This document shows positions 13,789 to 54,019 of a stretch of 64,000 bases of DNA, piece by piece (the first letter of the stretch is position 1; each line of letters starts with the position of its first letter). The stretch comes from a virus. Its lineage: Duplodnaviria > Heunggongvirae > Uroviricota > Caudoviricetes. A program made the position numbers and the translations under genes. The DNA is taken from positions 1,475 to 65,474 of IMG/VR virus record IMGVR_UViG_3300029742_000285; one strand, written 5' to 3'. The notes beneath the pieces are model-generated. The model was not told the origin of the DNA, did no database searches, and worked only from the letters and a program-made list of their open reading frames with translations.

Positions 13789-13866
13789 TGGTGCTGCATA
13801 CTGGATTTGAACCAATGTATGCTCGGATATGAGCCGAGTGCTCTAACCATACTAAGCTAATGTAGC
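13789..13866 (-). tRNA. tRNA-Met (CAT anticodon), phage-encoded
   Basis: Manual fold of the reverse strand: acceptor GCTACAT/ATGCAGC (one A-C mismatch), D-arm GCTT..GAGC, anticodon arm CTCGG-CTCATAT-CCGAG, T-arm ATTGG-TTCAAAT-CCAGT, discriminator A, encoded CCA. Confidence 0.55.
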
Positions 13867-14289: not shown

Positions 14290-15957
14290 TCAAAAAGGTC
14301 TCTTGACAGGCTCGATTTTACTGATTCCGTTATACAATTCATCGGCAAGCTGTGCCAGACTGTCCGGTGCATCATCGTGCGGAACTTTGCCAAGCTGCGT
14401 GAACATCGTGACCTGTTCCATGAACGCTTTGTACTCTTTCGACTGGTGTTTTTCGTCAAGGAAATAGAACCGTTTGATATCCGGCGCATACTGGATGATT
14501 CTTGACAGCTTGCTTTGACCACTAGGCGCACGCTGGCTGCGAACAGAACAGTGATACCCTTGCTGCCGGAGCTGGCTGTCCACCACATCACAGTATTCAT
14601 CACCGCCGTTGTTGGCTTCGCCGCGCACCACGTTGATTTTGTGTTGGATGATTTTGCCCACGACTTCCGGTCTGGTCACGGTTTTGTCGCCGTTGTTGAA
14701 CACAAGGTCAGGGATGAACACGGCATCGCCGTACACATAAGCGATAGGACAGGCGGTAAAGTCACCGCCACCCCATGCAATATCCATGACCATGAGCTTG
14801 CGATCAGGCTCGCCATCAGGCAGAATGCCGTTGAAATACCGCAGTTCATCGGCAGGAAACAGCAAACCTTCACGCACATAGGGCTTGCCCATGTACTTTG
14901 CCCACCATGTTGCATCGTCAATACTGGCTTTCATATCGGCATAGTAGGCATCGTCAAAGCCAACGCCGTAGTCATAATTAAAGTTGCTGTGTCCGTTCTC
15001 GTCCACCGCAGGAATCACCCGGAATCTGTACTTCGGGTTGTCGGCATACTGGTTCTGGATGCGTCCCAAAGGGTCAAGCACGTTCCAGCGCGTACCGACC
15101 ATCAGCTCTAATGCGCCTTGCTTTTTACGGTCTTTCAGCTGATTCAGATAGGCATCGTACTTGTTGTTCAGACGTTCAACGTTCAGGCTTTCCTCCAAGT
15201 CCTCGATCAAGTCATCGCTGTACAAAACGCCACCCTCACCGATTTCAACAGCACCAGTCAGCGTGCCACCGATCGAGCGGCAAGTCAGGGTGGGGAAGCG
15301 TTTCTTTCGGTTCAGGTCAACGCTTTCATCCTTTGCGCTTTTGTCCACAAGCTGAACATCAGGGAAGATTTTGCCCCAGTTGTAGGTTACGGGGTCGGTG
15401 ATGATAGACAGCACTTCGCCGTAGAAACCGTTTGTCAGCTTGTCAGAGTGTCCGCTCATAACCGATGCAACGTCAGGGCGGTTGCCCATCAACCATGTAA
15501 TGAAAAAAATACATAGCGTCGATTTTCCGACGCGAGCGGGTAAGCTAACTCCCAAGAAGTCAATCCGCTTATAAAACAAGTCCTCCAGGTCATCTGCCAG
15601 CACTTTCAGAACCCTGCGTCTCGGCTGATAGAACTTCTTCTCCGGCGCACGATTCCATTCAAGGTAGATGCAATAGCTGTCAAACACGTCCTTTGCTTCA
15701 AACAGGTACGTCCGGCCGATAATGTCATAGACCTTCGCCACGTCCTCGCCTGTTTTCATCTTGCCCATCATGGCTGCACAGACAGAGCGCAGCTCACCAG
15801 AGTATTTGTAGGCATCGAACCGCTTGTCTTGCGGCAGAGCATCTCTCAGGTTCACCACCGCCTGAAACCAGTCCTCGTAGACCTGCGCTTCTGTCGGATT
15901 CTGCTTTGCATATGCTTTGATACTGTCAATGATGGCGATACACTGCTTTGGCTGCAT
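14290..15957 (-). CDS. terL: Terminase large subunit
   Basis: Walker A LPARVGKST. ATPase-plus-nuclease architecture of about 555 aa. Directly upstream of portal. Confidence 0.85.
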   Translation of the reverse strand: MQPKQCIAIIDSIKAYAKQNPTEAQVYEDWFQAVVNLRDALPQDKRFDAYKYSGELRSVCAAMMGKMKTGEDVAKVYDIIGRTYLFEAKDVFDSYCIYLEWNRAPEKKFYQPRRRVLKVLADDLEDLFYKRIDFLGVSLPARVGKSTLCIFFITWLMGNRPDVASVMSGHSDKLTNGFYGEVLSIITDPVTYNWGKIFPDVQLVDKSAKDESVDLNRKKRFPTLTCRSIGGTLTGAVEIGEGGVLYSDDLIEDLEESLNVERLNNKYDAYLNQLKDRKKQGALELMVGTRWNVLDPLGRIQNQYADNPKYRFRVIPAVDENGHSNFNYDYGVGFDDAYYADMKASIDDATWWAKYMGKPYVREGLLFPADELRYFNGILPDGEPDRKLMVMDIAWGGGDFTACPIAYVYGDAVFIPDLVFNNGDKTVTRPEVVGKIIQHKINVVRGEANNGGDEYCDVVDSQLRQQGYHCSVRSQRAPSGQSKLSRIIQYAPDIKRFYFLDEKHQSKEYKAFMEQVTMFTQLGKVPHDDAPDSLAQLADELYNGISKIEPVKRPF

Positions 15958-16090
15958 AAAAAAATAGGCACCCCCTACCTGAAAATGTAAAGAGTGCCTA
16001 CAACTGCACAAAAATCAAATATTCGGTTTTATAATGCTATTTTCGGAAAATTATTTGCTAAAATCCATCTTAATAAATGGGTTGCTCAGT

Positions 16091-16252
16091 TTATTTGACT
16101 TCTTCTGCAAGCTGGTTGAGCCTGCGTTTCAGCTCGTCCGCATCGTAGTACAAAGCGTCTGCGATGGCATTGAGAATATCGGGCTTGTCGGTGTAATCGC
16201 ACAGCGTTTCAATGAGTTTCAAACTCTGATCTGACAATTTTACGGTTTTCAT
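16091..16252 (-). CDS. Hypothetical 53-aa protein between RtcB and terminase
   Basis: ATG preceded by GAAAGGAAAACGAC. Below the ORF-track size cutoff. Confidence 0.3.
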   Translation of the reverse strand: MKTVKLSDQSLKLIETLCDYTDKPDILNAIADALYYDADELKRRLNQLAEEVK

Positions 16253-16270: not shown

Positions 16271-17503
16271 TTATTCTCCCGCTTTGAAATTGTAAATGGG
16301 CTTAATGTGTTTTACAATATCAACTGTTGTGGAAATTGTGTTGATAATTTCCTGCGCTGGCTTATATGCCATCGGGCATTCATCCAACGTGGATTCATCG
16401 GCTGACGTAGTATAAATTCCGTTCATCTGCTTTTGGTATTCCTCAACGCTGAATGCTTTTTTAGCCGCTGTTCTGCTATATAGTCTGCCAGCACCATGCG
16501 GAGCAGAGAAATTCCAATCAGGATTTCCCTTACCAACACAGATAAGGCTTCCGTCTCTCATATTAAGAGGAATAATCAGCTTCTCGCCCTCTCTAGCGGA
16601 TACGGAGCCTTTTCGGATAATATCATCCGATTCATCAATATAGTTGTGAACGGTTTCAAAGAAGGACGCATGGGTCAGCATAGAATTGATTCCAACGCCG
16701 TCTAAAATGGTATGCATGATTCTTGCTCTGTTCATCCTCGCAAAAGCCTGACAAATTCGCATATCATTAAGGTAGGAATCACGTTCTTCGCCTTCAAGAT
16801 AGCAAAGCTCATTCGGAATATTAGGGAACTGAACATCCAATTCTTTGATTTTTTGCGAGATTTCCTGTTCACGGCCTTGTTCTTTCAGTTCCGCAATCAC
16901 GCGTTCCGTAGCTTCTTTTCTTTTGTTCTTTCCTTTGATATTTGAGATAGCTACGTTTTGATGATACTCTGCGACTTGCTTTCCGAGATTTCGGCTTCCA
17001 GTATGAATAACAAGATACTGGTTTTTTTCTTCATCTTCGTCCAGCTCGATAAAATGATTGCCCCCACCCAAAGTGCCCATGCTGCGAAGAATCCAGTCAA
17101 CATTATGTAGACTATCTTTGCAGTCAAGCTGGCTAAGGAAAGAATCTGACATTTTCTGCGATTCGTGAACATTCATCCCAGCCGGAACTCGTTCTCTGAT
17201 TACTTTATCTAACTTTTTCGGGTCGATGTGTTCAATACCGAGTTCAGCGACAAGCATCCCGCAGCCAATGTCCACGCCGACAATATTCGGAATGACTTTC
17301 TTGCCCAAGTCTGCCGTAAACCCAATTACGCACCCGGAACCAGCATGAACGTCTGGCATAATGCGAATTTTGCAGCCATCAACAAAGCTCTGATTGCAAA
17401 GCGTCAAAATCTGCTCAGACGCTTTGTCTTCAATATTGTCCGTGAACACCTTTGCGGACGCATATTTTCCATCAATCGTTTTCAATGTATTCTCCTTTCT
17501 CAT
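16271..17503 (-). CDS. rtcB: RNA-splicing ligase RtcB (3'-phosphate/5'-hydroxyl RNA ligase)
   Basis: Signature motifs MPDVHAGSGCVIGF, GGGNHFIEL and APHGAGR. About 410 aa. Confidence 0.85.
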   Translation of the reverse strand: MRKENTLKTIDGKYASAKVFTDNIEDKASEQILTLCNQSFVDGCKIRIMPDVHAGSGCVIGFTADLGKKVIPNIVGVDIGCGMLVAELGIEHIDPKKLDKVIRERVPAGMNVHESQKMSDSFLSQLDCKDSLHNVDWILRSMGTLGGGNHFIELDEDEEKNQYLVIHTGSRNLGKQVAEYHQNVAISNIKGKNKRKEATERVIAELKEQGREQEISQKIKELDVQFPNIPNELCYLEGEERDSYLNDMRICQAFARMNRARIMHTILDGVGINSMLTHASFFETVHNYIDESDDIIRKGSVSAREGEKLIIPLNMRDGSLICVGKGNPDWNFSAPHGAGRLYSRTAAKKAFSVEEYQKQMNGIYTTSADESTLDECPMAYKPAQEIINTISTTVDIVKHIKPIYNFKAGE

Positions 17504-17531: not shown

Positions 17532-18089
17532 TCACCTGTTCTGTTCAGCAATCCGATACCATGTCTGGCGGGTCACGCCAAGCTGCTTGGCAGCATCCGT
17601 GACCGTAAGAATGCGTTTCTCCACCTGTTCATGGAGAACGTCAAAGAGGTTTCGGTCATACTCGGTGGGCTTGCGACCTTTATAAACGCCTTTCTGCTTT
17701 GCCACTTCGATGCCCTCTTGCTGGCGGTCAAGCATATTCTGCCGCTCGAACTCGTTGATAGCCGCAATCATCGTGAGCATCAGTTTACCGGTGGGAGTGC
17801 CTGTATCTAGGTTTTCTTTATCACTTGCAAGGTGCACGCCGTTAGCTTGCAGCGTTTCGACCATTTCAAGCAAATCCTTTGTGCTACGGGCAAGGCGGCT
17901 GAAATCGTGGATAAACACGGTATCGCCCGGCTGAACTGATTTAAGCATCTTCTGCAACTCTGGTCTATCCATATTCTTGCCAGAGACCTTCTCGATAAAC
18001 CAACGGTCAATGTTATGCCGCTTCAACGCTTCTACCTGTCGTGCTTCATTCTGTTCGACAGTAGATACGCGAACATACGCTACGTTCAT
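17532..18089 (-). CDS. Small serine recombinase (resolvase/invertase family)
   Basis: N-terminal YVRVSTVEQ catalytic-serine motif, C-terminal HTH. 185 aa, too small for a large serine integrase. Confidence 0.8.
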   Translation of the reverse strand: MNVAYVRVSTVEQNEARQVEALKRHNIDRWFIEKVSGKNMDRPELQKMLKSVQPGDTVFIHDFSRLARSTKDLLEMVETLQANGVHLASDKENLDTGTPTGKLMLTMIAAINEFERQNMLDRQQEGIEVAKQKGVYKGRKPTEYDRNLFDVLHEQVEKRILTVTDAAKQLGVTRQTWYRIAEQNR

Positions 18090-18397
18090 TCAGAATCACT
18101 GTCCTTTTCAATTACAGTGCCTTCAACAAGATATTTCCCAGCTCCAACAGTTCCAACATCAGGCTCAATAACAATGCGATAATTCAATGCTTTCAAGAAC
18201 CTAAACAAAGTAGAAAGTTTCATGTTATCATCTTGAAGTCTGCGGTAAACAGCCTGATTGGAATTGTAATCAACGCTATCTGCCAACTGAACCATGCTTA
18301 CGCGCTGGTTCTTCATAATGTCTTTTACAATTTCGGATCCATTCGTTGATATTTTTACAGGTTTCTTCTTTTCCGCTTCATTTTTTCGCATCGTCAT
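18086..18397 (-). CDS. HTH (XRE-like) DNA-binding protein, first gene of the RtcB operon
   Basis: 103 aa. Segment VSMVQLADSVDYNSNQAVYRRLQ fits a helix-turn-helix. Stop overlaps the recombinase start (ATGA). Confidence 0.4.
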   Translation of the reverse strand: MTMRKNEAEKKKPVKISTNGSEIVKDIMKNQRVSMVQLADSVDYNSNQAVYRRLQDDNMKLSTLFRFLKALNYRIVIEPDVGTVGAGKYLVEGTVIEKDSDSE

Positions 18398-18422
18398 TTT
18401 CCTGTCCTCTCTTTCTGCTACA

Positions 18423-18451
18423 ATTATAAACGCTTCCGTTCACATTGTCAA
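18423..18451 (-). promoter_or_regulatory. Consensus sigma70 promoter (TTGACA-17-TATAAT). The operator TGAACGGAAGCGTT sits in its spacer.
   Basis: Reverse strand reads TTGACAatgtgaacggaagcgttTATAAT, 25-30 nt upstream of the 103-aa ORF start. Confidence 0.55.
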
Positions 18452-18683
18452 GAGTTTTCTCAATTTTACTATCACCAAGTCCAGATATTTCTGAGGTCTC
18501 ACTTATGTGACTGAATTATATTTACAGAATGTATATATTTTATAAAAAGAACGATACTTCGTAATGTGAAAAATCTGTTTGTAAACTTATTTATTTACAT
18601 TCCGGGAGTGAACCGCTATCAAATATCACATATTTGTGACATAAATTCAGATATATCTGATTAAAATTATACAAATTGGGTTG

Positions 18684-18712
18684 TTGACAACTATATACCA
18701 AGCGTCTATAAT
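18684..18712 (+). promoter_or_regulatory. Consensus sigma70 promoter (TTGACA-17-TATAAT), divergent from the RtcB operon promoter
   Basis: TTGACAactatataccaagcgtcTATAAT. Drives the plus-strand cassette starting at 18925. Confidence 0.5.
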
Positions 18713-18924
18713 CTAAGACAGCAGAACACACGATGAATCAGCCAGCAACGGTAGATTTATCCTTTGTGGCATAAAAAATAGGCCATCAGCACGACCGACC
18801 AAAGTAGCACTGATGACCTATTCCACCACAAAACAGAAGCTACGCAACCAAGGGCGCAGTCTCGGTTTCTGTCAATTATTATAGCAGAAGCAGACCGCTT
18901 CTGCAATAGAAAGGAGCAAAAAAC

Positions 18925-19089
18925 ATGAACTTTCCCACGACAACCGAAGAATTTCTAAAAACCCTCGCACACGGCAAAGAGCCGACCAACGAGGACAGAG
19001 AGTACGCCGAAGCACTGGGTAAGCTGTCCGAACTGAACTATCGGGCAGGGTACGAAGCGGGATCAGCCAATAAGAACGACAAAATCTGA
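18925..19089 (+). CDS. Hypothetical 54-aa protein
   Basis: ATG with RBS GAAAGGAGCAAAAAAC. First ORF downstream of the consensus promoter. Confidence 0.3.
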   Translation: MNFPTTTEEFLKTLAHGKEPTNEDREYAEALGKLSELNYRAGYEAGSANKNDKI

Positions 19090-19185
19090 TGTCAACACTA
19101 GCGAACACAATATCTAGTGTATTTTTGATTGACATTCAGATATTTTGCAGTTACACTTATTGCACAGCAAAACGAAAGGGGGTGA

Positions 19186-19368
19186 ATGTGTATGAGCAGT
19201 CCTTACGCAGAGCGTTACGGTCACACCGTTACCATCAGCGTGACGGAGCGACAGTTTGCAAGCTTGCAGGAATACTGCATCAAGAACCGGGTCTCCATTT
19301 CTGCTGCGTTCCGTGAAGCGTTCTTTACGCTGCATCCGATGGATTCCACCAATGAAAACGAAAAATGA
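19186..19368 (+). CDS. Small putative DNA-binding (RHH-like) protein
   Basis: 60 aa, RBS AAAGGGGGTG upstream. Confidence 0.3.
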   Translation: MCMSSPYAERYGHTVTISVTERQFASLQEYCIKNRVSISAAFREAFFTLHPMDSTNENEK

Positions 19369-19487
19369 TACGCTCGCTAAAGTTTGCCGACCACAGCGAA
19401 CGTATCATATCAACCCTGAGAGAAGCATTCTCTCGCCGTTATTATAGCAGAAAATTGCTTCTCTCACAAGTGAAAAGGAGCTTTTTA

Positions 19488-20282
19488 ATGCAACTTTCTT
19501 TGTCTGAGAACATCAAAATCTTCAACAACGCCGAGTTTGGCGAAATCCGTGTCATGCTCATTGACGATGACCCTTGGTTTGTTGGCAAGGACATTGCCGC
19601 AGCACTTGGGTACGTCAACACGAAAGACGCTCTTGCAAAGCACGTTGACGAGCAAGATAAGCGTCAGGGAGATGGGGTAGCGTTTTGCGACCCCATGGGC
19701 AGAGAACAGCATCCGACCATCATCAACGAATCCGGCCTATACAGTCTGATTTTCAGCAGCAAGCTGGAAAGCGCACAGCGGTTCAAGCACTGGGTCACTC
19801 ACGAAGTTCTGCCGTCCATCCGCAAGCATGGGATGTACATGACCGACAACCTGTTGGAGACGGCTATTGCCAACCCGGACTTCGTGATCGGGCTGATTCA
19901 GAACATGAAAGCTGAAAAGGAAAAGAACGCAGCGTTGCAGACGCAGAACAAGCAACTCTGTGAGAAGAACGAGGAGATGCAGCCTAAGGCGGACTATTTT
20001 GACGACCTTGTGGCATGGAACTTGGCTGTTTGTTTCCGTGGCACGGCAAAGGAACTGCGTATTCCTGAACGCAAGTTCATCCAATCGCTTATTGAAGATG
20101 GTTACATCTACCGTGACAAGAACAGAAATCTCCTGCCGAAAGCTGGCAAAGGTGATGAACTGTTCGTTGTTAAGGAATTTCTCAATCGGAAGAATAAGCA
20201 TGGCGGTTTGCAGACCAGAGTAACGCCGAAAGGCCGTGAGACCTTCCGTCTGCTCTATGCAAGCATTCGTAAAAGCGTATAA
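19488..20282 (+). CDS. Phage antirepressor (Bro-N domain plus KilAC-like C-terminal domain)
   Basis: Bro-N motif FNNAEFGEIRVMLIDDDPWFVGKDIAAALGY...HWVTHEVLPSIRKHGMY. RBS AAAAGGAG. Confidence 0.65.
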   Translation: MQLSLSENIKIFNNAEFGEIRVMLIDDDPWFVGKDIAAALGYVNTKDALAKHVDEQDKRQGDGVAFCDPMGREQHPTIINESGLYSLIFSSKLESAQRFKHWVTHEVLPSIRKHGMYMTDNLLETAIANPDFVIGLIQNMKAEKEKNAALQTQNKQLCEKNEEMQPKADYFDDLVAWNLAVCFRGTAKELRIPERKFIQSLIEDGYIYRDKNRNLLPKAGKGDELFVVKEFLNRKNKHGGLQTRVTPKGRETFRLLYASIRKSV

Positions 20283-20343
20283 CAACCTATAAGAAAAGCC
20301 AGTGGTTAGAGAACATCTAGCCGCTGGCTTTTTGTGTTATAGG

Positions 20344-21099
20344 TCAATCCTGCAAAGCAATGACTTCGTAGGAACTATATCCAACAAAACCGGACGATGG
20401 GTAAAGTTCAAATGTTGTCGTTTGCCCAGACGGAAGTGCATCGGTTATGTATGTGTAATCGCCACCCACAGGAACTTCGTTTCCTTCGGTGTCTTTCATT
20501 TTATAAATGACGATAACTTTTATCCAGTTGCTCGTGAACTGGCTATTGTTTGTAATTTGACCTGTGTAACGCAGATCGTACCCAGAGCCACGTTTAGAAA
20601 CATTGGTAACGGAAAGCTCACCAGCACGAATAACCTGATTGGATGCGCTCGCTTTATGGAAATTCCACTCATCCGCACTAATGGTGTATTCCATTCTGGC
20701 CGGAGCAATGCCTTCAGAATCAAACGACACATATCCAGCGTACCAATAAGAGTCTCCCTCTGCAATCCAGTCAAGGGTTTGTTCATCGGTTTTTAATACT
20801 GAACCGTCAGAACCGAAAACAGAGGCCTTTAGAGATACAAAATCAACGGCGTAATCGGGGTACGTATTCTCAACCAGTACAGCGTAGTAGACATAGTATC
20901 TCGTTTTTCCGTATTCGTACTTGGTTTCAAGGTGACTATGGGATTCCTTAATGTTTATTGGCTGAACTTGCGTTGCGTTAGTTTCTTCCAGCTCAACGGG
21001 AGCAGACCATTCATCAGGCTTTGCAGTTGCCATTGCGCTAATAGGCATAGCAAGCATCATAGCTGCTGCTAGAGCCGCCGCAATGATTCTCTTTCTCAT
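20344..21099 (-). CDS. Secreted / cell-surface protein of unknown function (moron candidate)
   Basis: N-terminal signal peptide MRKRIIAAALAAAMMLAMPISAMA, beta-rich. Opposite orientation to its neighbours. Confidence 0.45.
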   Translation of the reverse strand: MRKRIIAAALAAAMMLAMPISAMATAKPDEWSAPVELEETNATQVQPINIKESHSHLETKYEYGKTRYYVYYAVLVENTYPDYAVDFVSLKASVFGSDGSVLKTDEQTLDWIAEGDSYWYAGYVSFDSEGIAPARMEYTISADEWNFHKASASNQVIRAGELSVTNVSKRGSGYDLRYTGQITNNSQFTSNWIKVIVIYKMKDTEGNEVPVGGDYTYITDALPSGQTTTFELYPSSGFVGYSSYEVIALQD

Positions 21100-21126
21100 T
21101 TTTGATTCTTCCTTTCTTTGGCCAGA

Positions 21127-21270
21127 ATTTTATATAACGTTTGAAATACCATGTGCCATAAGATACACGCCAAAAACCAAAAGAGCGGCGCCGATAATGA
21201 TGCCCCATATTGAAGCGGCGATCTTTTCGTTCTTTTCGCGTCTTTCTTTATTTTTGTCATTCTTTTGGTT
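21127..21270 (-). CDS. Small single-pass membrane protein (47 aa)
   Basis: RBS AAAGGAGGAATATGAA. Lys-rich N-terminus followed by a hydrophobic helix. Confidence 0.3.
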
Positions 21271-21767
21271 CATTTCATATTCCTCCTTTGTGACACCACA
21301 AAGTGATTATAGCACAATCTAGGCTCCGAAAGGGGTCTTTTTGTATTTTTTGGAATTTTTGGAGACTTGCACAATCGGATGGGTTTCATTTTGTGAAGGT
21401 GGGGTGGGTGTTGGCAAGGGGAACCCCGAAAACGGCCTTTTTCTTTTAAAAATTTTATCGCGGGCATGACCCACCCCACCCACAGCGCTCCCTGTATACC
21501 CCTCCGGTGGATACCCCAGCCCCCAGCGCGTCCGGGCAGACTGCGGAGCACAGGCAGCACCAGAACCAGGGCGGGCAAGTATCAGGGCAGACCGCCCACC
21601 CAAAAGCTGGACACGCTGCACCGGTCTGCACTTGATACCAGACAGACCGCGCCGGGCAAATCGGGGCGGCGGCGGGGCTGGAGTGCCTGCGCAGTGTGTC
21701 CGATAGGGCACGCCCAAACGGACATACAAGAAATAAACTTTTCCGTTTATTTTTTTGTTCAAAAGCC

Positions 21768-21820
21768 TTGACAAAATGAACGGAAACGTTTATACTATAG
21801 ACAGTGAACGGAAACGTTCA
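21768..21820 (+). promoter_or_regulatory. Sigma70 promoter (TTGACA-17-TATACT). Two copies of the operator TGAACGGAAACGTT(CA) lie in the spacer and at +1.
   Basis: TTGACAaaatgaacggaaacgttTATACTatagacagtgaacggaaacgttca. Second operator is the palindrome TGAACG-gaaa-CGTTCA. Confidence 0.5.
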
Positions 21821-21851
21821 TACACCACCACAAAACAGGAGGACAAAAACC

Positions 21852-22280
21852 ATGAAAAAGACCATCGACTATACCGCACTCGCCGATACCATCCGCGCAG
21901 AACTCAACGCCCGCCACGATCGCAGCGCGTGGGATAAAGCCGTTACGTTATACGCTCTCGACCTGCTGGACGATGTGCAGGAGGGTGCAGACAATATGGA
22001 GCGCTTACCCCTTGACGGCGCAGAGCTTGAGCGGTGGGCGCTTAACGGTGCAAGCTGCTGGGAGCAGTATAGCAACGGCGGTTGCTCCATCTGCTATGAC
22101 GCCGATATCGCCGCCCGCGTATGCACACCGTCTGAACTCAAGCGCAAGCACGGCGGAGCGTATGAACCAAACAGCCGGGAAACGTGGCTTGACGTGCAAG
22201 CCCGCGCACTGTACCAAGCTTGCAACCGTATCCGCACCATCTGCCGCACAAACGGCCTGTATTGCAAGGGGGTGCAGTAA
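21852..22280 (+). CDS. Hypothetical protein (143 aa) under the operator-controlled promoter
   Basis: RBS CAGGAGGACAAAAACC ATG. No recognisable motif. Confidence 0.4.
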   Translation: MKKTIDYTALADTIRAELNARHDRSAWDKAVTLYALDLLDDVQEGADNMERLPLDGAELERWALNGASCWEQYSNGGCSICYDADIAARVCTPSELKRKHGGAYEPNSRETWLDVQARALYQACNRIRTICRTNGLYCKGVQ

Positions 22281-22390: not shown

Positions 22391-22588
22391 ATGACAATCG
22401 ATATTTACAAGCCGGAACTTGCTGCAGAGTATCGCGGCAACGTAAAAGCCGCTATCCGTGCCGGTGCTTATAGTGTATGGGACGCGGAACGCATTGCAGG
22501 CGCTTTTAATTTTGGACACGGTACGCAGGCCGATTTTGAGCGGCACAAAAAAGCAAATTCTGGCTTGCATCTTTTTATGGAGGTATAA
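22391..22588 (+). CDS. Hypothetical 65-aa protein
   Basis: RBS GAGGAGGGCG upstream. In the operon with the 21852 gene. Confidence 0.3.
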   Translation: MTIDIYKPELAAEYRGNVKAAIRAGAYSVWDAERIAGAFNFGHGTQADFERHKKANSGLHLFMEV

Positions 22589-22590
22589 AA

Positions 22591-22854
22591 ATGACGACTT
22601 TCGAAGAAAAGGTGAACGCATACCGCGAAAACAAACGGTTGATTGAAGAGCTTGAAGCAATGAATGACGCCGTAAAGGCTGAAATCATCGACATGATGCA
22701 CGGCGCGCCGGAAATGGTACAGGGCACTGCAAAGGCCATTTATAAGGACGTGCAGAGCATCCGACTTGATAGCAAGCTGCTTAAGACGCTACACCCTGAT
22801 GTATACGCCGAATGTAGCAGCAAAACCAGCTACAAGCGTTTTAGCGTGGTATGA
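22591..22854 (+). CDS. Hypothetical 87-aa protein
   Basis: RBS GGAGG upstream, translationally coupled to the 65-aa ORF. Confidence 0.3.
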   Translation: MTTFEEKVNAYRENKRLIEELEAMNDAVKAEIIDMMHGAPEMVQGTAKAIYKDVQSIRLDSKLLKTLHPDVYAECSSKTSYKRFSVV

Positions 22855-23079
22855 TGGGATGCGACAAGTGATATTATCTTGCATCTTGTTTTTCTTCTGG
22901 TTTTTCTCGGCGCTGTTTAAGGCGTCCAAGTGATACCGCACGGACACTTTAGCGGGGCTGCACCGTAAAGCAACCCCGCCCCAGCCCAAAAGGGTAAAAA
23001 ACTTTCTGCAAGTCCTGTTTTCGGGGCTTGCAATATGCTATACTGTAAAAAAGGGCAAAGCCCGGAAAAGAGGAAAACC

Positions 23080-23241: not shown

Positions 23242-23270
23242 CCCCGTCCGCGTGGCGGGGCTTTTCTTTT
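23242..23270 (+). terminator. Rho-independent terminator
   Basis: CCCCGTCCGCGTGGCGGGG hairpin followed by CTTTTCTTTT. Confidence 0.5.
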
Positions 23271-23865
23271 GCCTTGCATCTGCTGAGGGTGCAGGGCTTT
23301 TATTTTGTCCTGCTGCAATACAGCCACGCGCAAGCGTTTACAGCGCGTTTTGTGTCGTCCATGTAAATTATACCGCCAACGCTGCAAAGCATCATACAGT
23401 GCTTTACTGCGGCTTTTCCGGCGCTTGTGCCCGCTCAGCCGCCCACGATACCAGACCGACACAAGCGGCTATAATACCGCCTGCACCACGCTGGAGCGCA
23501 TCACAGCGCCGCAACGCATCCAGCGCATACCAGATAACACCGCCACGCCAGACGCTGTACAGACCAGCGCAACCGCCCTATTATAATAAGGTATATAAGG
23601 GTGCGTCCCTGTTATGGATTCATGCCAGCCCGGCGGGGTCAGCTACTGCCGTCTGTGGATTGCTGGCAAGTGCTGGCAGCGTGTCAGCAGTACAGACCCG
23701 GCGCACCCGCTGAGGGGTCAGCGTCTCCACCTGTACAGGGTCAGCCCGGCAGCTTGCAATTTAGCACCGGCTGGCGCCCTCCACCCGGCGGGGCAGTCGG
23801 GCAGTGGCGCGGCGGGCGGCGCGGAACCATTGGCGGCTCTCGCCGCAGCTCTTTTCGGGCTTTCG

Positions 23866-25364: not shown

Positions 25365-26282
25365 TTAAGCCATGTAGTCCTCAAATCGTTTAACCGACTT
25401 GAAGATAATTTTGTTGTTACACCATCTCTGCAAGTGTCGAATCTCTTTCGGTGCGGATGGCTTGTTATAAATCATCACATAAGGGTCGTAGCCCAGATCA
25501 CGAAGCGTGTAGATGCGATACAGGTCTTGTTCCAACGTGCTGTTAAAGTTCGTTAGACAGTAAACCATTCCAATGTTCGACTTACGCCGAAATCCCTTTG
25601 CAAAGTCCTCAAACTTGCCTTTCAAGTCATCGTTAGGGTTATCCCACGCAAAATGTAGCGTGCCAATCCGCATTTTGTTAATGTCCTCAATGTCTGCTTG
25701 ATTCAACAATCGAATGTCCAGACCTTGCGTGAAGTCGATTTTGGCGTGGGTGTCAATGTACTGCTGCATGAGGTCACGCTTCTCTCTGCAAGCTGTGATG
25801 TTCGGGTCTAAAACTTTGATTTCGTCCTGACCGCACCAAAAGTCGCTTACATCTGCCACTTTTACGGCACATCTTCCCTCTTTTGCTGCAACATGGCAGA
25901 AGGAACATCCTCTAGGGCATCCCCGGCTTGTCATGCTGACTGCAAACGGGAACTGTGGGTAAATGCTATAATCAGGAAAAGACTTTTCGATTTCAGGCGG
26001 TAAATCAACGTCTTTCGATTTATCGAATATTTCTTTGCCGTCCACTGTGCGGATTGCGTATCCTGTGCCGCCTTTAATCACCTTGTCAGCGTTCAATGGT
26101 TCTGGCACGTCAGGGCTGTACACGTCTGAAAAAATCTTGCTCATGTACACAATGTCATAGTGGACAAAATCACTCCACCACCATTCAACATCATCGCCTT
26201 TTGCCTTGTGATAGCTTGAAATCCGCATCAATGCAAGGTTCGGGAAATTGTGTCCGTCTACGTCAATCAATCCAATTTTCAT
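25365..26282 (-). CDS. Radical SAM domain protein with B12-binding-like N-terminal region
   Basis: CPRGCSFC (CxxxCxxC) motif at about residue 120. N-terminal MKIGLIDVDGHNFPNLALMRISSY resembles a Rossmann-like cobalamin-binding fold. Confidence 0.55.
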   Translation of the reverse strand: MKIGLIDVDGHNFPNLALMRISSYHKAKGDDVEWWWSDFVHYDIVYMSKIFSDVYSPDVPEPLNADKVIKGGTGYAIRTVDGKEIFDKSKDVDLPPEIEKSFPDYSIYPQFPFAVSMTSRGCPRGCSFCHVAAKEGRCAVKVADVSDFWCGQDEIKVLDPNITACREKRDLMQQYIDTHAKIDFTQGLDIRLLNQADIEDINKMRIGTLHFAWDNPNDDLKGKFEDFAKGFRRKSNIGMVYCLTNFNSTLEQDLYRIYTLRDLGYDPYVMIYNKPSAPKEIRHLQRWCNNKIIFKSVKRFEDYMA

Positions 26283-39786: not shown

Positions 39787-40170
39787 TCACCAACACTCAC
39801 CAGCCTTTTTGGTGATGAAAGCGGGCACGTTCCTGCCGGTAGCCCGGCACAGGCAGACACACTTGGCGATCCAAATGTTCCAATCCGGCGTATAAAATGC
39901 GCAATCGGATTTCTTTGATTCTGCTTCTTCATACGCTCTAATGTAAGCTACGGTATAACCATCTGAGCCAAACCACTCAATGCTATACCCGTCCAAACAC
40001 AATCGGCTCATAATGCGCATTGCTAAGTGCTGCGCTTCCATGATTTCCGCTTCTGTCCACTTCAGCTTGTCCGCTTCATAAGCCTTGACCGCTTCGTCAA
40101 TGGCGTGGTGCGCTTCGTCTGGGTGTTTAAGGTCTACCTTTAAGGTGATGATCTGTTCCATGCTACTCAT
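39787..40170 (-). CDS. Hypothetical protein
   Basis: 127-aa ORF, first gene after cro. Confidence 0.3.
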   Translation of the reverse strand: MSSMEQIITLKVDLKHPDEAHHAIDEAVKAYEADKLKWTEAEIMEAQHLAMRIMSRLCLDGYSIEWFGSDGYTVAYIRAYEEAESKKSDCAFYTPDWNIWIAKCVCLCRATGRNVPAFITKKAGECW

Positions 40171-40364
40171 TTTCCCTCTCTTTCCTTCAACAGCTCTTCT
40201 AGAGCTTCTTTTACCTTAGCTTCCGCATTTTTAGGCTCACGCTTACCGTTCAGGATTTTTCCCAAGTATTCCGGTGCGCATCCAATTTTTGCAGCAAGCT
40301 CTCTGATTTCGATGCTGTTAACGTGAAGCGTTCCAACAACATCGCCTGTCCACTTAGGAAGCAA
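40167..40364 (-). CDS. Cro-like HTH regulator
   Basis: 65 aa. Helix-turn-helix segment IRELAAKIGCAPEYLGKILNG. Divergent from the repressor gene. Confidence 0.5.
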   Translation of the reverse strand: MLPKWTGDVVGTLHVNSIEIRELAAKIGCAPEYLGKILNGKREPKNAEAKVKEALEELLKEREGK

Positions 40365-40594
40365 ATTTTTTCTCCTTTCTTGTTCTAGTACTTGAACTTT
40401 TTGAAAGAATATGATAATATTATGGTGTCAAGCAAAAACATTATCGAACGTTCTTCTATTTGTTCAAAGCCTTTAATTTGTTCTACCGATTGAACCCGGT
40501 AGCCTTATTAAAGCACAAGTAGTAGAACTTTTCAAGTGTTTTTGTTCAAGTGGTAGAACTTTGTCATCTTGTACAAACACTGGAGGTATGTTTT

Positions 40595-40930
40595 GTGTTT
40601 TTTGACAATTTCGTAAGGCTATGTGAGCAAAAGGGAGTAAAGCCGTCTCGTGCTTTGACTGAAGCTGGCGTTCCGAAATCTGCTTATAGCTATTGGAGAG
40701 CCGAAGCAGGTTCAGGGAACGATGCAAAGCCGACCAATCAAAATGCCGTTAAGCTGGCACAGTATTTCAATGTTACGGTCGACTACCTTCTTACTGGCAT
40801 CCAAAAAGAAAACCCGTCCCAGCAGCCGCAAAGTGAAGTCGATGCAGCAGTGGAGCGGATTAGAAGAAAACTTGAATCCATGCCGAAGGAGCAGCGTGAA
40901 GCTCTGATGAACCTGATCGAGAAGATGTAA
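40595..40930 (+). CDS. CI-like XRE-family repressor
   Basis: GTG start with GGAGG 9 nt upstream. An alternative GTG lies at 40550. Helix-turn-helix segment ALTEAGVPKSAYSYWR. Confidence 0.5.
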   Translation: MFFDNFVRLCEQKGVKPSRALTEAGVPKSAYSYWRAEAGSGNDAKPTNQNAVKLAQYFNVTVDYLLTGIQKENPSQQPQSEVDAAVERIRRKLESMPKEQREALMNLIEKM

Positions 40931-42835: not shown

Positions 42836-42858
42836 CGTCCCCCTACTTGTGATATACT
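42830..42858 (+). promoter_or_regulatory. Sigma70 promoter TTGACA-17-TATACT for repA. Overlaps the last iteron.
   Basis: TTGACAcgtccccctacttgtgaTATACT. Confidence 0.5.
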
Positions 42859-42887
42859 GTTTTCAGACCATTAAAGGAAGTGAGCAG

Positions 42888-43964
42888 ATGCCAAAAATAT
42901 CAGACAACAACCTTGTCGAGAAAAGCAAATCCCTTGTTTGGGCGAAGTTCAGGGACTACACCGCAGGAGAACTTCGGTTGTTGGAGGTTTACCTATCAAG
43001 AATAAATCCGAGAGACCCTAACAGTAGCCGTGTGGAGTTCACTTTGGCAGAGTATAGAGACCTGCTCGGACTGAAAAGCCTTGACGCTAGGAGGATTGAG
43101 CCGCAGATCAAGCACTTTTTAGGCAATACGGTTTCGATTCCTATTGACAAGGAGAAAGGAACATTTGAAAGCTTTGTCCTATTCACGAGGGCAAAACTGG
43201 ACTATGTACCAGAAACAAGGTCTTACGTTGTGGCAATCACCTGCAACCCAGACCTTCGTTCTATCTTCTTTGACATCGCAGAAAGCGGCTATGTCCGGTA
43301 TCGGCTACGTTACACGTCACGGATGAAGTCGCAGTACAGCATCTTGCTCTATTCGATTCTTCGGGACTGGATGAACATGGACAGCAAACCGCATGAAATC
43401 AGTCTGAAGAAGTTGAGGGAACAGCTCGGTGCAACGGAAGCCAGCTACGATGTTTACAAGAACCTTCGCAAGCGAGTGCTTGACGTTGCGGTGGACGAAA
43501 TCAATGCTGTGTCTGACATTGTTGTGACTTACGAGCCAGTCCTTGTAGCGCGAAAAGCTGTGGCAGTCAAGTTTAAGCCAAAAATTAAAGCGTCTGAGAC
43601 GTTGATTGAAGCACAGGCAAGCGAAGTGTTGACCGAACCTCAAAAAGTCGTCAAAAAGCCCCGTAGAAGCGGATACGATGATTTTGACTGGTCTATGTGT
43701 GACGAACTAGAAAAGCAGGACTGCATTGATGTGGCGAAGGTAGTTGAGAAGTGGATGAAGAAAGAGCATCCTGAAATCAAGCTGCCAAGACGCAGAGAAG
43801 CGGTTTACGACACGGTGAAGGCGGCGTATAAGGACATTTTGTCTTTGGATAGGTCTCCGTTCCCGGACAGACCTGTTGGCTATCTGATTAGAAGCGTGGA
43901 CAAGGCGGGTATCGTAGACAGGTATATGCCAGCGTTCTATTCCATCGAAGCGTTGCAAAAGTAG
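42888..43964 (+). CDS. repA: Plasmid-type replication initiator (Rep_3 / RepA-like)
   Basis: N-terminal SLVWAKFRDYTAGELRLLEVYLSRINP motif typical of Rep_3 initiators. Iterons directly upstream. RBS AAAGGAAGTGAGCAG ATG. Confidence 0.65.
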   Translation: MPKISDNNLVEKSKSLVWAKFRDYTAGELRLLEVYLSRINPRDPNSSRVEFTLAEYRDLLGLKSLDARRIEPQIKHFLGNTVSIPIDKEKGTFESFVLFTRAKLDYVPETRSYVVAITCNPDLRSIFFDIAESGYVRYRLRYTSRMKSQYSILLYSILRDWMNMDSKPHEISLKKLREQLGATEASYDVYKNLRKRVLDVAVDEINAVSDIVVTYEPVLVARKAVAVKFKPKIKASETLIEAQASEVLTEPQKVVKKPRRSGYDDFDWSMCDELEKQDCIDVAKVVEKWMKKEHPEIKLPRRREAVYDTVKAAYKDILSLDRSPFPDRPVGYLIRSVDKAGIVDRYMPAFYSIEALQK

Positions 43965-47660: not shown

Positions 47661-48299
47661 TTACTTATCAGCAATGCAATCCCAGTAGAGATACGCCTTG
47701 CCATCTGCAGCATCTGCGTCTTCAAGGAACGCCTTTGCCATGTCAGCGTAGAAGCCCGAAGTGTCAACGGACTGACGCTTTGCCACCTGACAATAATCCG
47801 AGTACATCATGTTCATAACAGCCCAGAAATCGTTCGGGTCACAGGTGATATTGCGCTGTTTCGCAACGTCCTGCGTCTGTTCCAACGTCCAGTGACAGCC
47901 CTTTGTGCCGTCAGCGTTGACCATGCTGTCACACCATTCCTCTGCTTCATCGTGGGTGAGGTGCTGGCGTGGCATCCTGATTGAGCGGCTGTCTGCGCCG
48001 CCACGTTCGTACTGTCCAGACCGCTTGTCCCAGTCTCCGTTCTGCGAGAAGCCGATTTGCGGCATCTTGCGCCCATACTCTACGTCAGGGTAGCGGGGGA
48101 TAGGGTAAGGGTCGATGTAGCGGTTTTCCTCCTGCGGATAGTAGGGATAGCGGTCGTTGCCGCCTTCCAGCTTGCGCAGACGGCGTTCCATCTCACGCTC
48201 CCTGCGGTCACGCTCTTCCTCAAGGCGGTCACGCTCCGGCTCACGGTCTTTGTCGTGGTCGCGGAGCATCATCATGCGGCGAAAATTGTTCTTGCCCAT
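47661..48299 (-). CDS. Hypothetical protein with charged RD/RE-rich N-terminus, YPYYPQ segment and Cys-containing C-terminal domain
   Basis: 212-aa ORF, RBS AAGGAGGTATAG upstream. Confidence 0.35.
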   Translation of the reverse strand: MGKNNFRRMMMLRDHDKDREPERDRLEEERDRREREMERRLRKLEGGNDRYPYYPQEENRYIDPYPIPRYPDVEYGRKMPQIGFSQNGDWDKRSGQYERGGADSRSIRMPRQHLTHDEAEEWCDSMVNADGTKGCHWTLEQTQDVAKQRNITCDPNDFWAVMNMMYSDYCQVAKRQSVDTSGFYADMAKAFLEDADAADGKAYLYWDCIADK

Positions 48300-48312
48300 A
48301 ATCTATACCTCC

Positions 48313-48684
48313 TTAAGAAATGGACGCGGGCGCACCAGCGTGGGAACGGCAGAAGCAGCCAAAATACTTGAACGTGCCTGTGCCAGTGGCAGACGTTGCA
48401 ACGCGGGTAGCGTAGCGGGTGCGAGTGTGGATGCTTTCAGCGGTTGCCTGAGCGCAGTTGCAGTCGGTCAGAGGGTATGCGGTCGTTCCTGCACCGATGG
48501 TAATGACCACAGGAGCGTTGATGGTGGTCGTGTCCGGGATGCTCTGGGCAACTACGATGCAATACTTCTCTCCGTTCTGGTATGCGCCAGCAGGGATGTT
48601 GATGGTCAGCGTGTCATTGGCGAACGTCACCGCATCCGAGATGACGAGGTGCGGGCACAGACGGCAGCTTGTTTTGCAAGCCAT
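48313..48684 (-). CDS. Thr/Ala-rich, Cys-containing small protein of unknown function
   Basis: 123 aa. CxxC near the N-terminus, CNC and CFC motifs. Confidence 0.35.
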   Translation of the reverse strand: MACKTSCRLCPHLVISDAVTFANDTLTINIPAGAYQNGEKYCIVVAQSIPDTTTINAPVVITIGAGTTAYPLTDCNCAQATAESIHTRTRYATRVATSATGTGTFKYFGCFCRSHAGAPASIS

Positions 48685-48770
48685 AATGTTTTCCTCCTAT
48701 AAAAATCAGGGGCAGAGGTGTCTTGCCCCTGCCCCGATGGTTCACCCGGTGTTATCGGGGAGTGTGTTGG

Positions 48771-49643
48771 TTAGCAGCAGCCGCAGCAGTTCACGCCCAC
48801 GTTGGGGTTTGCCACCTGATAAGCGGGAATCGGACGAGGATTGACCCGATTCAGGATGGTATCAGTCTGCTGGGACATCACGGTGGTCAGAAGCGCATTC
48901 TGCCGATCCTGAGAAGCGGCAAACTTGAGGTTCTGGTTCTCAGCGGTCAGAGTTGCGATCTTGTCCTGCGTGAAGTAGTCCATCATGCTGCGGAAGTTGG
49001 CGTTGCAGTTGTCCACGATGGCGCGGGCATTGTCTGCGATGGCCTGCCGGGTGGCACAGTCTTCCGTTGCGATGGTGTACTTCAGGTCGCCGATCAGCTG
49101 CTTGTTCTCGCAGCAGCAAGATGCCAGCTGCGTGGCAAGAGCGGTCTGACCCGCCTGCCGTGCGTTGCCTTCCTGCATGATAGCAAGGCTGATGGCATTG
49201 TCGCCGTTGGACACGCTGCGTTCCAGGCCGTTCACCAGCTGTGCGTTCTGGTAGCCAAGCTGACAGATGGCACTGTTCACGCCTGCAAAGCCGTTCGCGA
49301 TGTTGGTGTTGACGCCGTTGATCTGCGCCAGCTGGTCATACCCCAGAGAGCAGATACCGCTCTGGATGCCCGCCAGAGAGCGGGAGGTATCCTGCTGATA
49401 AAAGCCCTCAGACAGAGCCGCGCGGGTGTCGTTGCCGCCCTGCCCGGTTGCGCCAGTGCCGACCAGATAGGGGATGTAGCTCGCCATACCGTTGTCGCTG
49501 CCGTTGCGCCCGTTGCCGTAGTTGCCCCAGCCGAAGATGATAGCGAGGATAATAACAGCCCAAAGACCCTCGTTGCCGAAGAATCCGCCGTTGTTATTGC
49601 CGCCGTCCTGCCCAGCCAGATAGCCAGTTGCAAAATCGTCCAT
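48771..49643 (-). CDS. Gly/Asn-rich membrane-anchored protein with internal repeats and C-terminal CCGCC
   Basis: Starts MDDFATGY. TM helix LWAVIILAIIFGW. Repeats GIQSGICSLGY / VNSAICQLGY. Ends VNCCGCC. Confidence 0.35.
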   Translation of the reverse strand: MDDFATGYLAGQDGGNNNGGFFGNEGLWAVIILAIIFGWGNYGNGRNGSDNGMASYIPYLVGTGATGQGGNDTRAALSEGFYQQDTSRSLAGIQSGICSLGYDQLAQINGVNTNIANGFAGVNSAICQLGYQNAQLVNGLERSVSNGDNAISLAIMQEGNARQAGQTALATQLASCCCENKQLIGDLKYTIATEDCATRQAIADNARAIVDNCNANFRSMMDYFTQDKIATLTAENQNLKFAASQDRQNALLTTVMSQQTDTILNRVNPRPIPAYQVANPNVGVNCCGCC

Positions 49644-49782
49644 AACAAAACTCCTTTCAGTTTTGCGTATGCTATCCCACCGCCGTATGCGATGGGCGAA
49701 GCCAAACAAATGCGGTTTTTGTCAAGTCCGCAAAACTGAGAAGCGTTTCGCTTAGAGAGATGCTTATTTTAGGGTTGTTAAG

Positions 49783-49944
49783 TCAGCTCGGAGGGTTGCC
49801 TTTTTTATCTTTTGAGTCATCCCAATTTTTGCTGGCAGCACCGAAAATGAAGCCAAGCATTAAAGGAACCCATATTTTGTCATCGCCACACAGATTGTTG
49901 ATGTCAAAATCTTTTTCGGAATGGCTGTTTTCAAAATCATCCAT
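49783..49944 (-). CDS. Small membrane protein (53 aa), MDDF-start paralog of the downstream gene N-terminus
   Basis: RBS GAAGTGAGGAGACTTTGCA ATG. TM helix IWVPLMLGFIFGAA. Confidence 0.3.
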   Translation of the reverse strand: MDDFENSHSEKDFDINNLCGDDKIWVPLMLGFIFGAASKNWDDSKDKKGNPPS

Positions 49945-49956
49945 TGCAAAGTCTCC

Positions 49957-50208
49957 TCACTTCGGAAGCGTCAAATTCAGGACGCTTGCCAGCTGGTTCA
50001 GGTCGATGCCACGCTCTTTGGCGAGGTTCTGCGCCATCGTTCGGAGTTGCGCTTCGTTTTTGCCCTGAATCAGGTTCAAGCCCTGCATGATAGGAGCATT
50101 CTGCCCGCTTAACTGCTGGATAAGACCCATCGGGTTTTGTCCGGCACGAGCCAGATTTGCAAGCTGCATGATAGGGCTGTGAGTAATCATATCAAACGGA
50201 GAGGACAT
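49957..50208 (-). CDS. Hypothetical Gln/Leu-rich protein (83 aa)
   Basis: ORF in the operon. Confidence 0.3.
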   Translation of the reverse strand: MSSPFDMITHSPIMQLANLARAGQNPMGLIQQLSGQNAPIMQGLNLIQGKNEAQLRTMAQNLAKERGIDLNQLASVLNLTLPK

Positions 50209-50211
50209 CGC

Positions 50212-51576: not shown

Positions 51577-51586
51577 GTGTGCCTCC

Positions 51587-52759: not shown

Positions 52760-52762
52760 AAA

Positions 52763-53098: not shown

Positions 53099-53101
53099 AA
53101 T

Positions 53102-54009: not shown

Positions 54010-54019
54010 AGCGTCCTCC

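Follow-up and report, generated by a model that had tools for sequence, protein, structure and literature searches.

How one short palindrome comes to lie within two strong promoters of a single phage of gut bacteria, and which protein recognizes it, is the question raised by positions 18,423 to 21,820 of the window, by which is meant the whole 64-kb stretch of IMG/VR virus record IMGVR_UViG_3300029742_000285 that was analysed (positions 1,475 to 65,474 of that record). The window belongs to a siphovirus-like temperate phage or phage-plasmid. The palindrome is likely to be the 16-bp operator of a 103-amino-acid (aa) helix-turn-helix (HTH) autorepressor, encoded directly behind one of the two promoters (P1), that also represses the other (P2); operator and protein would form an exchangeable cassette, and the genes under their control would be accessory cargo. 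The motif is best read in this way because the operators at both promoters change in concert from one class of related phages to the next, and because the HTH protein changes with them.

A shared palindrome at two promoters

A reading made from the sequence alone (the sequence-only reading) had described a 14-bp operator in three copies. Its recurrence is borne out by a scan of the window, in which TGAACGGAARCGTT has three exact copies (18429-18442 on the minus strand, and 21777-21790 and 21805-21818 on the plus strand). The repeating unit proves to be longer and the sites to number four: each copy belongs to a 6-4-6 palindrome of 16 bp, T(G/A)AACG-GAAR-CGTT(C/T)A, of which it is the core, and a degenerate copy at 21734-21749 (TAAACTTTTCCGTTTA) is added to the three. 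With up to two mismatches allowed, TGAACGGAARCGTT has 5 matches in the window against a mean of 1.06 in 100 dinucleotide-preserving shuffles of it, none of which reaches 5, so the motif does not occur at random frequency. A weaker two-mismatch match at 205-218 is non-palindromic and probably due to chance.

P1 (TTGACA-17-TATAAT, 18451..18423, minus strand) agrees with the consensus at 12 of 12 positions and P2 (TTGACA-17-TATACT, 21768..21796, plus strand) at 11 of 12, and a promoter scan places them among the three best promoter-like sites within 12-27 kb. They have their -35 hexamer, spacer length and -10 region in common. As the sequence-only reading held, one copy (18429-18442) lies in the 17-bp spacer of the near-consensus minus-strand promoter, and the plus-strand promoter at 21768 carries the motif in its spacer and again near +1, where the last copy is the palindrome TGAACG-GAAA-CGTTCA. 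In P1 and P2 alike the palindrome starts at the fourth base of the spacer and ends with the 'TA' of the -10 hexamer. The degenerate site is in reverse orientation, centred about 43 bp upstream of the spacer site and near -61 relative to P2; the centres of the three P2 sites are thus spaced by 43 and 28 bp. The elements of the two promoters are as follows.

18446..18451, minus strand: P1 -35 hexamer TTGACA, found by consensus scan and kept in all 8 operator classes described below
18427..18442, minus strand: operator O-P1, TGAACG-GAAG-CGTTTA, occupying spacer bases 4-17 and overlapping the -10 hexamer
18423..18428, minus strand: P1 -10 hexamer TATAAT, sharing its first two bases with the end of the operator
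18086..18397, minus strand: gene for the 103-aa XRE/HipB-like HTH protein (translation), the proposed autorepressor and the first gene behind P1
21734..21749, minus strand: operator O3 at P2, TAAACGGAAAAGTTTA in the minus-strand reading, the degenerate fourth copy upstream of -35
21768..21773, plus strand: P2 -35 hexamer TTGACA, from the promoter scan
21777..21792, plus strand: operator O2 at P2, TGAACG-GAAA-CGTTTA, in the spacer and overlapping the -10 hexamer
21791..21796, plus strand: P2 -10 hexamer TATACT, from the promoter scan
21805..21820, plus strand: operator O1 at P2, the perfect palindrome, at about +2..+17
21821..21851, plus strand: P2 leader and ribosome-binding site (RBS), caccaccacaaaacaggaggacaaaaacc, kept across classes and in front of differing first cargo genes

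The likeness of P1 and P2 in -35, spacer length and -10 would also fit duplicated or gene-converted promoter copies, with the motif as a passenger of no regulatory meaning. This is scarcely credible: two copies of the palindrome, at +1 and upstream of -35, are outside the promoter core, all four sites change together from class to class, and the motif is a dyad-symmetric 6-4-6 unit that covaries with a DNA-binding protein.

Among 2.9 million IMG/VR contigs, the 16-mer is present three times per contig only in this phage group; other contigs have it mostly as a singleton, or as part of an unrelated 22-bp iteron array. The array cases are two unrelated phage contigs (L194, 9230-9330, and L201, 10764-10860) in which the 16-mer falls inside the tandem iteron GCGTTCAGCCCACTGAACGGAA; because no homologous HTH gene is nearby, these matches are regarded as coincidental. 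The Firmicute LexA/Cheo box is GAAC-N4-GTTC. The palindrome contains GAAC-N6-GTTC and its letters differ between phages, and a LexA/Cheo-box reading was set aside on account of this N6 rather than N4 spacing and the changing sequence.

Operator classes in related phages

The comparison covered about 90 related phage contigs overall. BLAST against phage records retrieved four related human-gut contigs. The class A motif, as the palindrome of the window is called below, is absent from all four, and their homologous promoters carry other palindromes in the same place: that at P1 of one contig (L004) is GTAAACGAAAAGATTTAC, P2 of another (L001) has three copies of the same kind, and P1 of a third (L002) has TACGCTAGAAAGCGTA. 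A profile of the 103-aa protein then gave 80 IMG/VR loci, and the class comparison was made over 82 loci including the window. In every one of these the P1 operator belongs to one of four classes, always in identical register.

Class A: TGAACGGAAGCGTTTA, 7 loci including the window
Class B: CAAACAAAATTRTTTA, 21 loci
Class C: TAAATCTTTTCGTTTA, 14 loci
Class D: TACGCTAGAAAGCGTA, 40 loci

All loci that reach far enough have a second promoter 1.5-5.3 kb off, with two or three sites of the class found at P1 and variable genes in between. The layout of P2, with an upstream site, a spacer/-10 site, a +1 site and the leader, is conserved. An upstream site of matching class is present in all representative class A-D loci inspected, and a +1 site of matching class in classes A-D and in the more distant class G; the spacer/-10 site is the invariant feature across all classes. 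No off-class sites occur, except that the upstream P2 site of class A also fits the class C pattern. The same promoter architecture is found with at least eight different palindromes, and P1 and P2 of one genome are always of the same class. One class D locus (L049) is identical to the window upstream of P1 as far as TTGACAAT and diverges from the first operator base. With the breakpoint there, the operator therefore travels with the HTH gene.

A profile search for more distant relatives yielded 22 protein clusters, all of them metagenomic (jgi, ena, lgn). These HTH clusters have no Pfam domain, and the sole name given to any is 'hypothetical protein'. Their contigs, together with a prophage described below (class H), add four operator classes.

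Class E: TAAACAAAAATATTTA, distant relatives
Class F: TGAACACAATCGTTTA, distant relatives, including L168
Class G: GAGG-N4-CCTC, with an HTH protein 27% identical
Class H: CACC-N4-GGTG, in a prophage of a Bacillota metagenome-assembled genome (MAG)

In class G there is one site in the P1 spacer and there are four at a divergent promoter 230 bp away (upstream, spacer and +1). In class H the sites are in the P1 spacer and in the spacer of a divergent promoter; this prophage, located through the large terminase subunit (TerL), has an 82-aa HTH protein, a resolvase, cargo and TerL. A 'ccaccgaaaaaataaaaaaga' element occurs upstream of P1 in classes E-H. L168 (978-1400) has two complete modules of promoter, operator and HTH gene in tandem, the first of class F with a 99-aa HTH protein and the second of class D with a 91-aa one; a resolvase gene comes next. 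A further relative (P0007), 66-68% identical overall and with the same recognition helix as the window protein, has an exact class A operator in its P1 spacer, as the pairing of helix and operator predicts. In a class D-like locus (L269), about 220 bp separate P1 and P2, which stand back to back; this arrangement points to promoters that were divergent at first and to a later insertion as the origin of the 3.3 kb between them in the window.

The phage lineage is abundant in the viral and metagenomic collections that were searched, and 445 IMG/VR stretches encode relatives of the CI protein of the window. A scan of GTDB representative genomes with the HTH profile gave no matches, and a TerL scan of GTDB found two MAGs only, one from a Bacillota bacterium and the other a doubtful Bacteroidales bin.

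The protein that follows the operator class

All open reading frames (ORFs) of at least 45 aa within 6 kb on either side of the HTH gene were clustered for the 82 loci, and the CI/Cro pair of the phage was also compared. The HTH family (91-103 aa) is the only ORF family with class-confined subclusters, which correspond to the operator classes one to one (adjusted mutual information, AMI, 0.85; homogeneity 1.0). Other families of high homogeneity fall into dozens of subclusters, have low AMI and look like spurious ORFs, and the association of RtcB and TerL with operator class is about zero. HTH class and operator class thus agree one-to-one over 82 loci and four classes, and do so again in the four further classes of the distant relatives. 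Variation in the HTH protein is concentrated at residues ~31-58 (helix 2, turn and helix 3), with conserved flanks; this, together with the L049 breakpoint, indicates that operator and recognition region are exchanged jointly, as one cassette.

The neighbouring serine recombinase, encoded by the second gene of the P1 operon, would be a natural owner of the sites, either as res-like subsites that also repress or as inverted crossover sites at which the 3.3-kb P1-P2 segment is flipped. The P1 and P2 sites are inverted relative to each other, with an asymmetric centre, the three subsites of P2 recall res, and the Tn3/gamma-delta resolvase is established to repress tnpA/tnpR through res. Such ownership is nevertheless very improbable. 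The resolvase has an AMI of 0.51, each of its three subclusters occurs with two or three operator classes, and its C-terminal DNA-binding HTH (GRKPTEYDRNLF..LTVTDAAKQLGVTRQTWYRIAEQ) hardly differs between classes. The P1 and P2 sites are kept in at least 20 loci that have no resolvase gene (26 of the 82 loci lack a resolvase ORF, some of these loci being truncated). The gene families between P1 and P2 have a single orientation in all loci, so that no inversion or rearrangement is seen, and the sites are 16 bp rather than ~26-34 bp long. The resolvase was rejected, as binder and as recombinase of these sites, on covariation, gene absence and constant orientation.

The window encodes several other HTH and ribbon-helix-helix (RHH) proteins, and the screen covered 6 kb on either side plus the CI/Cro pair; the binder might accordingly be sought in the CI/Cro-like XRE proteins, an RHH protein of the interval, a distal phage protein or a host factor. 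All of this is quite improbable. The CI/Cro-like divergent XRE pair at 40.2-40.9 kb (CI-like, 40595-40930, plus strand; Cro-like, 40167-40364, minus strand) is evidently the lysogeny switch. Its proteins are 91-98% identical, with unchanged HTH residues, across contigs of classes A, B and D, and in one pair of contigs, of classes B and D, CI is 100% identical. The switch region (40364-40560) has its own set of three 6-4-6 palindromes of 16 bp, GTTCTAGTACTTGAAC, GTTCTACCGATTGAAC and GTTCAAGTGGTAGAAC, of the type GTTCTA-N4-TTGAAC and unrelated to the P1/P2 motif. RHH families occur in 17 loci only and are not class-specific, and the RHH gene that is intact in L002 and L004 seems to be cut to a 13-codon remnant at the same position in the window. 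A host factor, for its part, cannot account for eight operator classes among near-identical phages. The CI/Cro pair was rejected as near-invariant across classes with different operators of its own, and the RHH proteins as sporadic and without class specificity. The sequence-only reading had named either the HTH protein of 18086-18397 or one of the XRE proteins as the candidate regulator; the former, which covaries with the operator, is retained, and the latter, invariant and with their own operators, are not.

The AlphaFold2 (AF2) model of the 103-aa protein has helices at 20-31, 35-42, 47-55 and 61-70, with a predicted local distance difference test score (pLDDT) of 82-89 in this core. By this model, the protein has an XRE (Cro/CI, HTH_3-like) fold in which the third helix (~ residues 47-55) would be the recognition helix. 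The best Foldseek matches are HipB, HigA, C-proteins (C.Esp1396I) and P22 C2, with probabilities of 0.97-1.0 and template modelling (TM) scores, relative to the target, of 0.60-0.69. HipB, HigA, C-proteins and P22 C2 are dimeric operator binders. PHROG 8522, 'HTH DNA binding protein', also matches (E=2e-5). A profile search of PDB chains at E<=10 found no Aca chain, and its best match, to HipB, is insignificant (E=0.13); the top 50 Foldseek matches include no Aca chain either. A C-terminal YRI/LVxEP segment is conserved yet unstructured in the monomer model, and by analogy with HipB it may form the dimer interface.

Proposed regulation

In the scheme that we infer for binding, dimerisation, sign and timing of regulation and cargo function, a presumed HTH dimer would place one recognition helix on each 6-bp half-site of T(G/A)AACG-N4-CGTT(C/T)A. 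At the spacer/-10 site of its own promoter P1 it would exert negative autoregulation on the HTH-resolvase-RtcB operon, and at the three P2 sites (upstream of -35, spacer/-10 and +2..+17) it would co-repress the operon of small proteins. The near-perfect sigma-70-type promoters would give a burst of transcription on entry into a repressor-free cell, followed by shut-down to a low, steady level. Operator and recognition helix would be an exchangeable specificity cassette with at least eight allelic classes. A protein lying across the spacer and -10 of an optimally spaced consensus promoter, as well as at +1, is a classical case of RNA polymerase occlusion, and the position of the sites is the ground on which repression is proposed here. 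The claim that two strong promoters are silenced by one repressor therefore stands as regards the shared operator behaviour and the cognate HTH protein, while the silencing itself is deduced from position only.

The same HTH protein could instead act as a concentration-dependent activator and repressor in the manner of C-proteins, or serve mainly to gate late genes through P1 read-through into TerL. C-proteins are among its closest structural matches, the upstream P2 site has its centre near -61, where activators act, and P1 is the last promoter before TerL, whose start codon is adjoined by a conserved hairpin and T-run. Either role is unlikely: at 11-12 of 12 consensus positions and with 17-bp spacers, P1 and P2 need no activator, and the invariant spacer/-10 site is incompatible with RNA polymerase binding.

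Several points weigh against the HTH protein as autorepressor and co-repressor of P2. The covariation screen, with its 6 kb to either side and the CI/Cro pair, covered part of a ~57-kb genome, and a covarying protein that is distal or shorter than 45 aa may exist. The covariation of P1 operator and HTH gene could be linkage, because they are only ~30 bp apart; since this could by itself explain P1, the argument for the HTH protein draws on P2 and on the distant lineages. The AF2 model has a moderate overall pLDDT of 71.7 and a C-terminal third that is unstructured as a monomer, the Foldseek E-values are ~0.1, and no Pfam HTH model (HTH_3/HTH_31) matches the 103-aa protein at E<=0.01. A dual role as activator and repressor is conceivable because the upstream P2 site is at an activator-type position, and the anti-defence rationale for the timing is an analogy, because the cargo has no assigned function.

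It is also possible, if rather doubtful, that the HTH/operator cassette is a second, CI-independent layer of immunity under diversifying selection. If so, incoming relatives would find their entry-phase operons shut off by the repressor of a resident phage of their own class. Their packaging and late genes might be silenced too, since after P1 no further promoter precedes the conserved hairpin adjoining TerL. Phages that share an identical CI would accordingly divide, by their eight or more operator classes, into heteroimmunity or 'anti-anti-defence' groups, and the two regulated slots would be hotspots for mining anti-defence and defence genes of gut Bacillota phages.

The cargo of the two operons

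On the minus strand, P1 is followed by the genes for the 103-aa HTH protein, a 185-aa serine resolvase, RtcB and a 53-aa ORF, then a hairpin, TerL, tRNA-Met and the portal protein. Apart from the HTH gene, the elements behind P1 are these.

17532..18089, minus strand: small serine recombinase (resolvase/invertase) of 185 aa (Pfam Resolvase, 1.4e-42), optional P1 cargo
16271..17503, minus strand: RtcB RNA ligase of 410 aa (Pfam RtcB, 3e-62; PHROG, 6e-134), optional P1 cargo
16091..16252, minus strand: 53-aa ORF without a family match, variable cargo
15964..16001 (element 15955-16001), minus strand: terminator-like hairpin GTAGGCAC...GTGCCTAT and T7 run, directly adjoining the TerL ATG (15957)
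13789-13866, minus strand: tRNA-Met (CAT) gene, between the TerL and portal genes

RtcB is present in 19 of the 82 loci as a single sequence subcluster, with the same form in all four classes. Phage RNA ligases have been discussed as repairing RNA cut by host nucleases (PMC7824862), and by analogy RtcB, although optional cargo, could do the same. In two relatives (L165, 1965-2803; L269, 9332-10170), the P1 slot has a SocA_Panacea-domain protein followed by a 104-aa protein, plus YjcQ; the 104-aa protein has a weak PemK-toxin match in L165, and the two resemble a toxin-antitoxin pair. The pair suggests that the P1 slot carries defence-type as well as possible anti-defence genes, and is itself more defence-like than anti-defence-like.

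The hairpin before TerL varies by hardly a base among the four classes, irrespective of the cargo in front of it, and the sole RBS-like G-run before TerL falls within its 3' arm. P1 is the last recognisable promoter before TerL, with none in between. The hairpin (15964-16001) is probably either the 3' end of the P1 operon or a point of regulated read-through, and TerL expression seems to need read-through or antitermination there.

The P2 operon consists of small genes.

21852..22280, plus strand: first cargo gene, 142 aa, without a Pfam, PHROG or PADLOC match
22391..22854, plus strand: second and third cargo genes, 65 aa and 87 aa, the latter matching only PHROGs without function, apart from the match given below
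23242..23297, plus strand: two terminator-like hairpins (hairpin scan), the probable end of the P2 operon

The product of the first gene, given earlier as 143 aa, is actually 142 aa long. It has 3256 homologous clusters, with none annotated among the 120 listed, and its AF2 model (pLDDT 56.8) is too poor for a structure search. P2 promoters of class A and of class D alike are followed by this gene type, and the first P2 slot is hypervariable, with at least seven unrelated proteins within class D alone. For the 87-aa protein there is also a match to phrog_434, in its C-terminal region; this family is annotated as a RecE-like recombination exonuclease. Downstream of the 87-aa gene and ahead of the terminators, a match to Rfam RAGATH-5 (RF02685, typed as a ribozyme) lies within the operon at 22940-22990 on the plus strand, with 60.5 bits against a gathering score of 50.

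Besides the resolvase, RtcB and YjcQ, the cargo proteins have no match to a Pfam, PHROG or PADLOC family of known function. Both operons are hypervariable accessory cargo, and they are most safely described as 'accessory-gene hotspots under an autorepressed strong promoter'. The label 'anti-defence', which the sequence-only reading had given to this cargo, is an analogy to Aca regulators, because the cargo is hypervariable and has no assigned function.

Surroundings of the cassette

The cassette is located between the replication and packaging modules. The 3.3-kb interval between P1 and P2 in the window contains a motif-free consensus promoter, an RHH gene with a BRO/ANT antirepressor gene, and a gene for a 251-aa minus-strand protein that is possibly exported. 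Two genes of the wider region are listed here.

19488-20282: BRO/ANT antirepressor, preceded by the RHH gene and with its own motif-free promoter at 19129
42849-43964: Rep3-type plasmid initiator (Pfam Rep3_N/Rep3_C)

At 18684-18780, a perfect, operator-free plus-strand promoter (TTGACA-17-TATAAT) is followed only by a 13-codon ORF, apparently what is left of the divergently transcribed RHH gene that is intact at that position in L002 and L004. Upstream of P2, 21340-21730 is GC-rich and apparently non-coding, with a long inverted repeat, ggtggggtgggt ... acccaccccacc, and with spurious ORFs that are highly variable between loci. A second motif, TTATTATAGCAGAA, has 5 matches at up to two mismatches against 0.36 expected, a number that no shuffle reached; its positions include 18876-18889, 19439-19452, 21304-21317 and, on the minus strand, 18413-18426. 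Copies stand immediately upstream of a 54-aa gene and of the BRO/ANT gene, and another overlaps the -10/+1 region of P1. The first two copies lack a good -35, and the motif could be a start-region or processing signal.

Elsewhere, the window encodes a DnaB helicase and, at 25365-26282 on the minus strand, a 305-aa protein that matches PHROG 9298, 'radical SAM domain protein' (2e-97), with no Pfam match at E<=0.01. No integrase was found among the ORFs scanned. GC content rises from ~46% to 56-62% beyond 48 kb, and the proteins of 48000-64000 have no Pfam matches. Related IMG/VR contigs are ~55-60 kb long; possible readings are a phage-plasmid or a window that extends into the host or another element.

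Comparison with known systems

The Aca regulators of acr-aca operons follow a logic of burst and then shut-off (PMC9410906, PMC8633003), and according to a recent report (PMC13551039) Aca proteins also control neighbouring operons. The cassette resembles them in having a small phage HTH protein, inverted-repeat operators over the core of its own strong promoter and a second occurrence of that operator at a nearby operon; the genes under control are of the short, fast-turnover, accessory kind, for which a burst followed by shut-off would be expected. Unlike in Aca operons, where it comes last, the HTH gene is the first of its operon, the protein has no detectable sequence similarity to solved Aca structures, and no known acr or anti-defence gene was found among the cargo by Pfam, PHROG or PADLOC. 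In this lineage the second operon is also 1.5-5 kb away, and the P1 cargo comprises a resolvase, RtcB and, in relatives, toxin-antitoxin genes.

Among HipB/HigA antitoxins and C-proteins are the closest folds, short XRE HTH domains with a C-terminal strand or tail and, as proposed here, autoregulation by way of palindromes over -35/-10. However, the operon has no HipA or HigB toxin, as downstream there is a resolvase, RtcB or other cargo and then TerL, and no restriction endonuclease or methyltransferase, of the sort linked to C-proteins, is found among the scanned P1/P2 operon proteins of the window. A serine resolvase gene adjoining promoters with three dyad subsites is reminiscent of Tn3/gamma-delta res, although here the resolvase gene is missing from many loci and shows no covariation with the sites. 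P22 immI, with Mnt/Arc control of Pant, is likewise a secondary regulatory region, and this phage too has an antirepressor (BRO/ANT) behind an RHH gene; the immI regulators, however, are RHH proteins controlling ant, whereas here the regulator is an XRE HTH protein and the ant cassette has its own motif-free promoter.

The lambdoid heteroimmune modules (lambda, 434, P22 and 21) show the same concerted change of recognition helix and multiple operators among mosaic phages, with XRE-type HTH proteins and dyad operators of ~16-17 bp. The cassette differs in not being the lysis-lysogeny switch; that part is played by the class-invariant CI/Cro pair at 40.4 kb, which has operators of its own. Control by an XRE autorepressor through palindromic operators is textbook material, and the value of the system is in its specificity pairs and cargo hotspots rather than in a new principle. 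A predicted function is assigned to a protein family that had neither a Pfam model nor a name, and the natural pairing of recognition helix with operator, available in at least eight versions, offers a ready data set on HTH-DNA specificity and a basis for designing orthogonal repressors. The two promoter-proximal slots take up unrelated small genes that are swapped from phage to phage and, if the analogy with Aca regulators holds, the operator would be a handle in the search, among gut Bacillota phages, for new defence and anti-defence genes.

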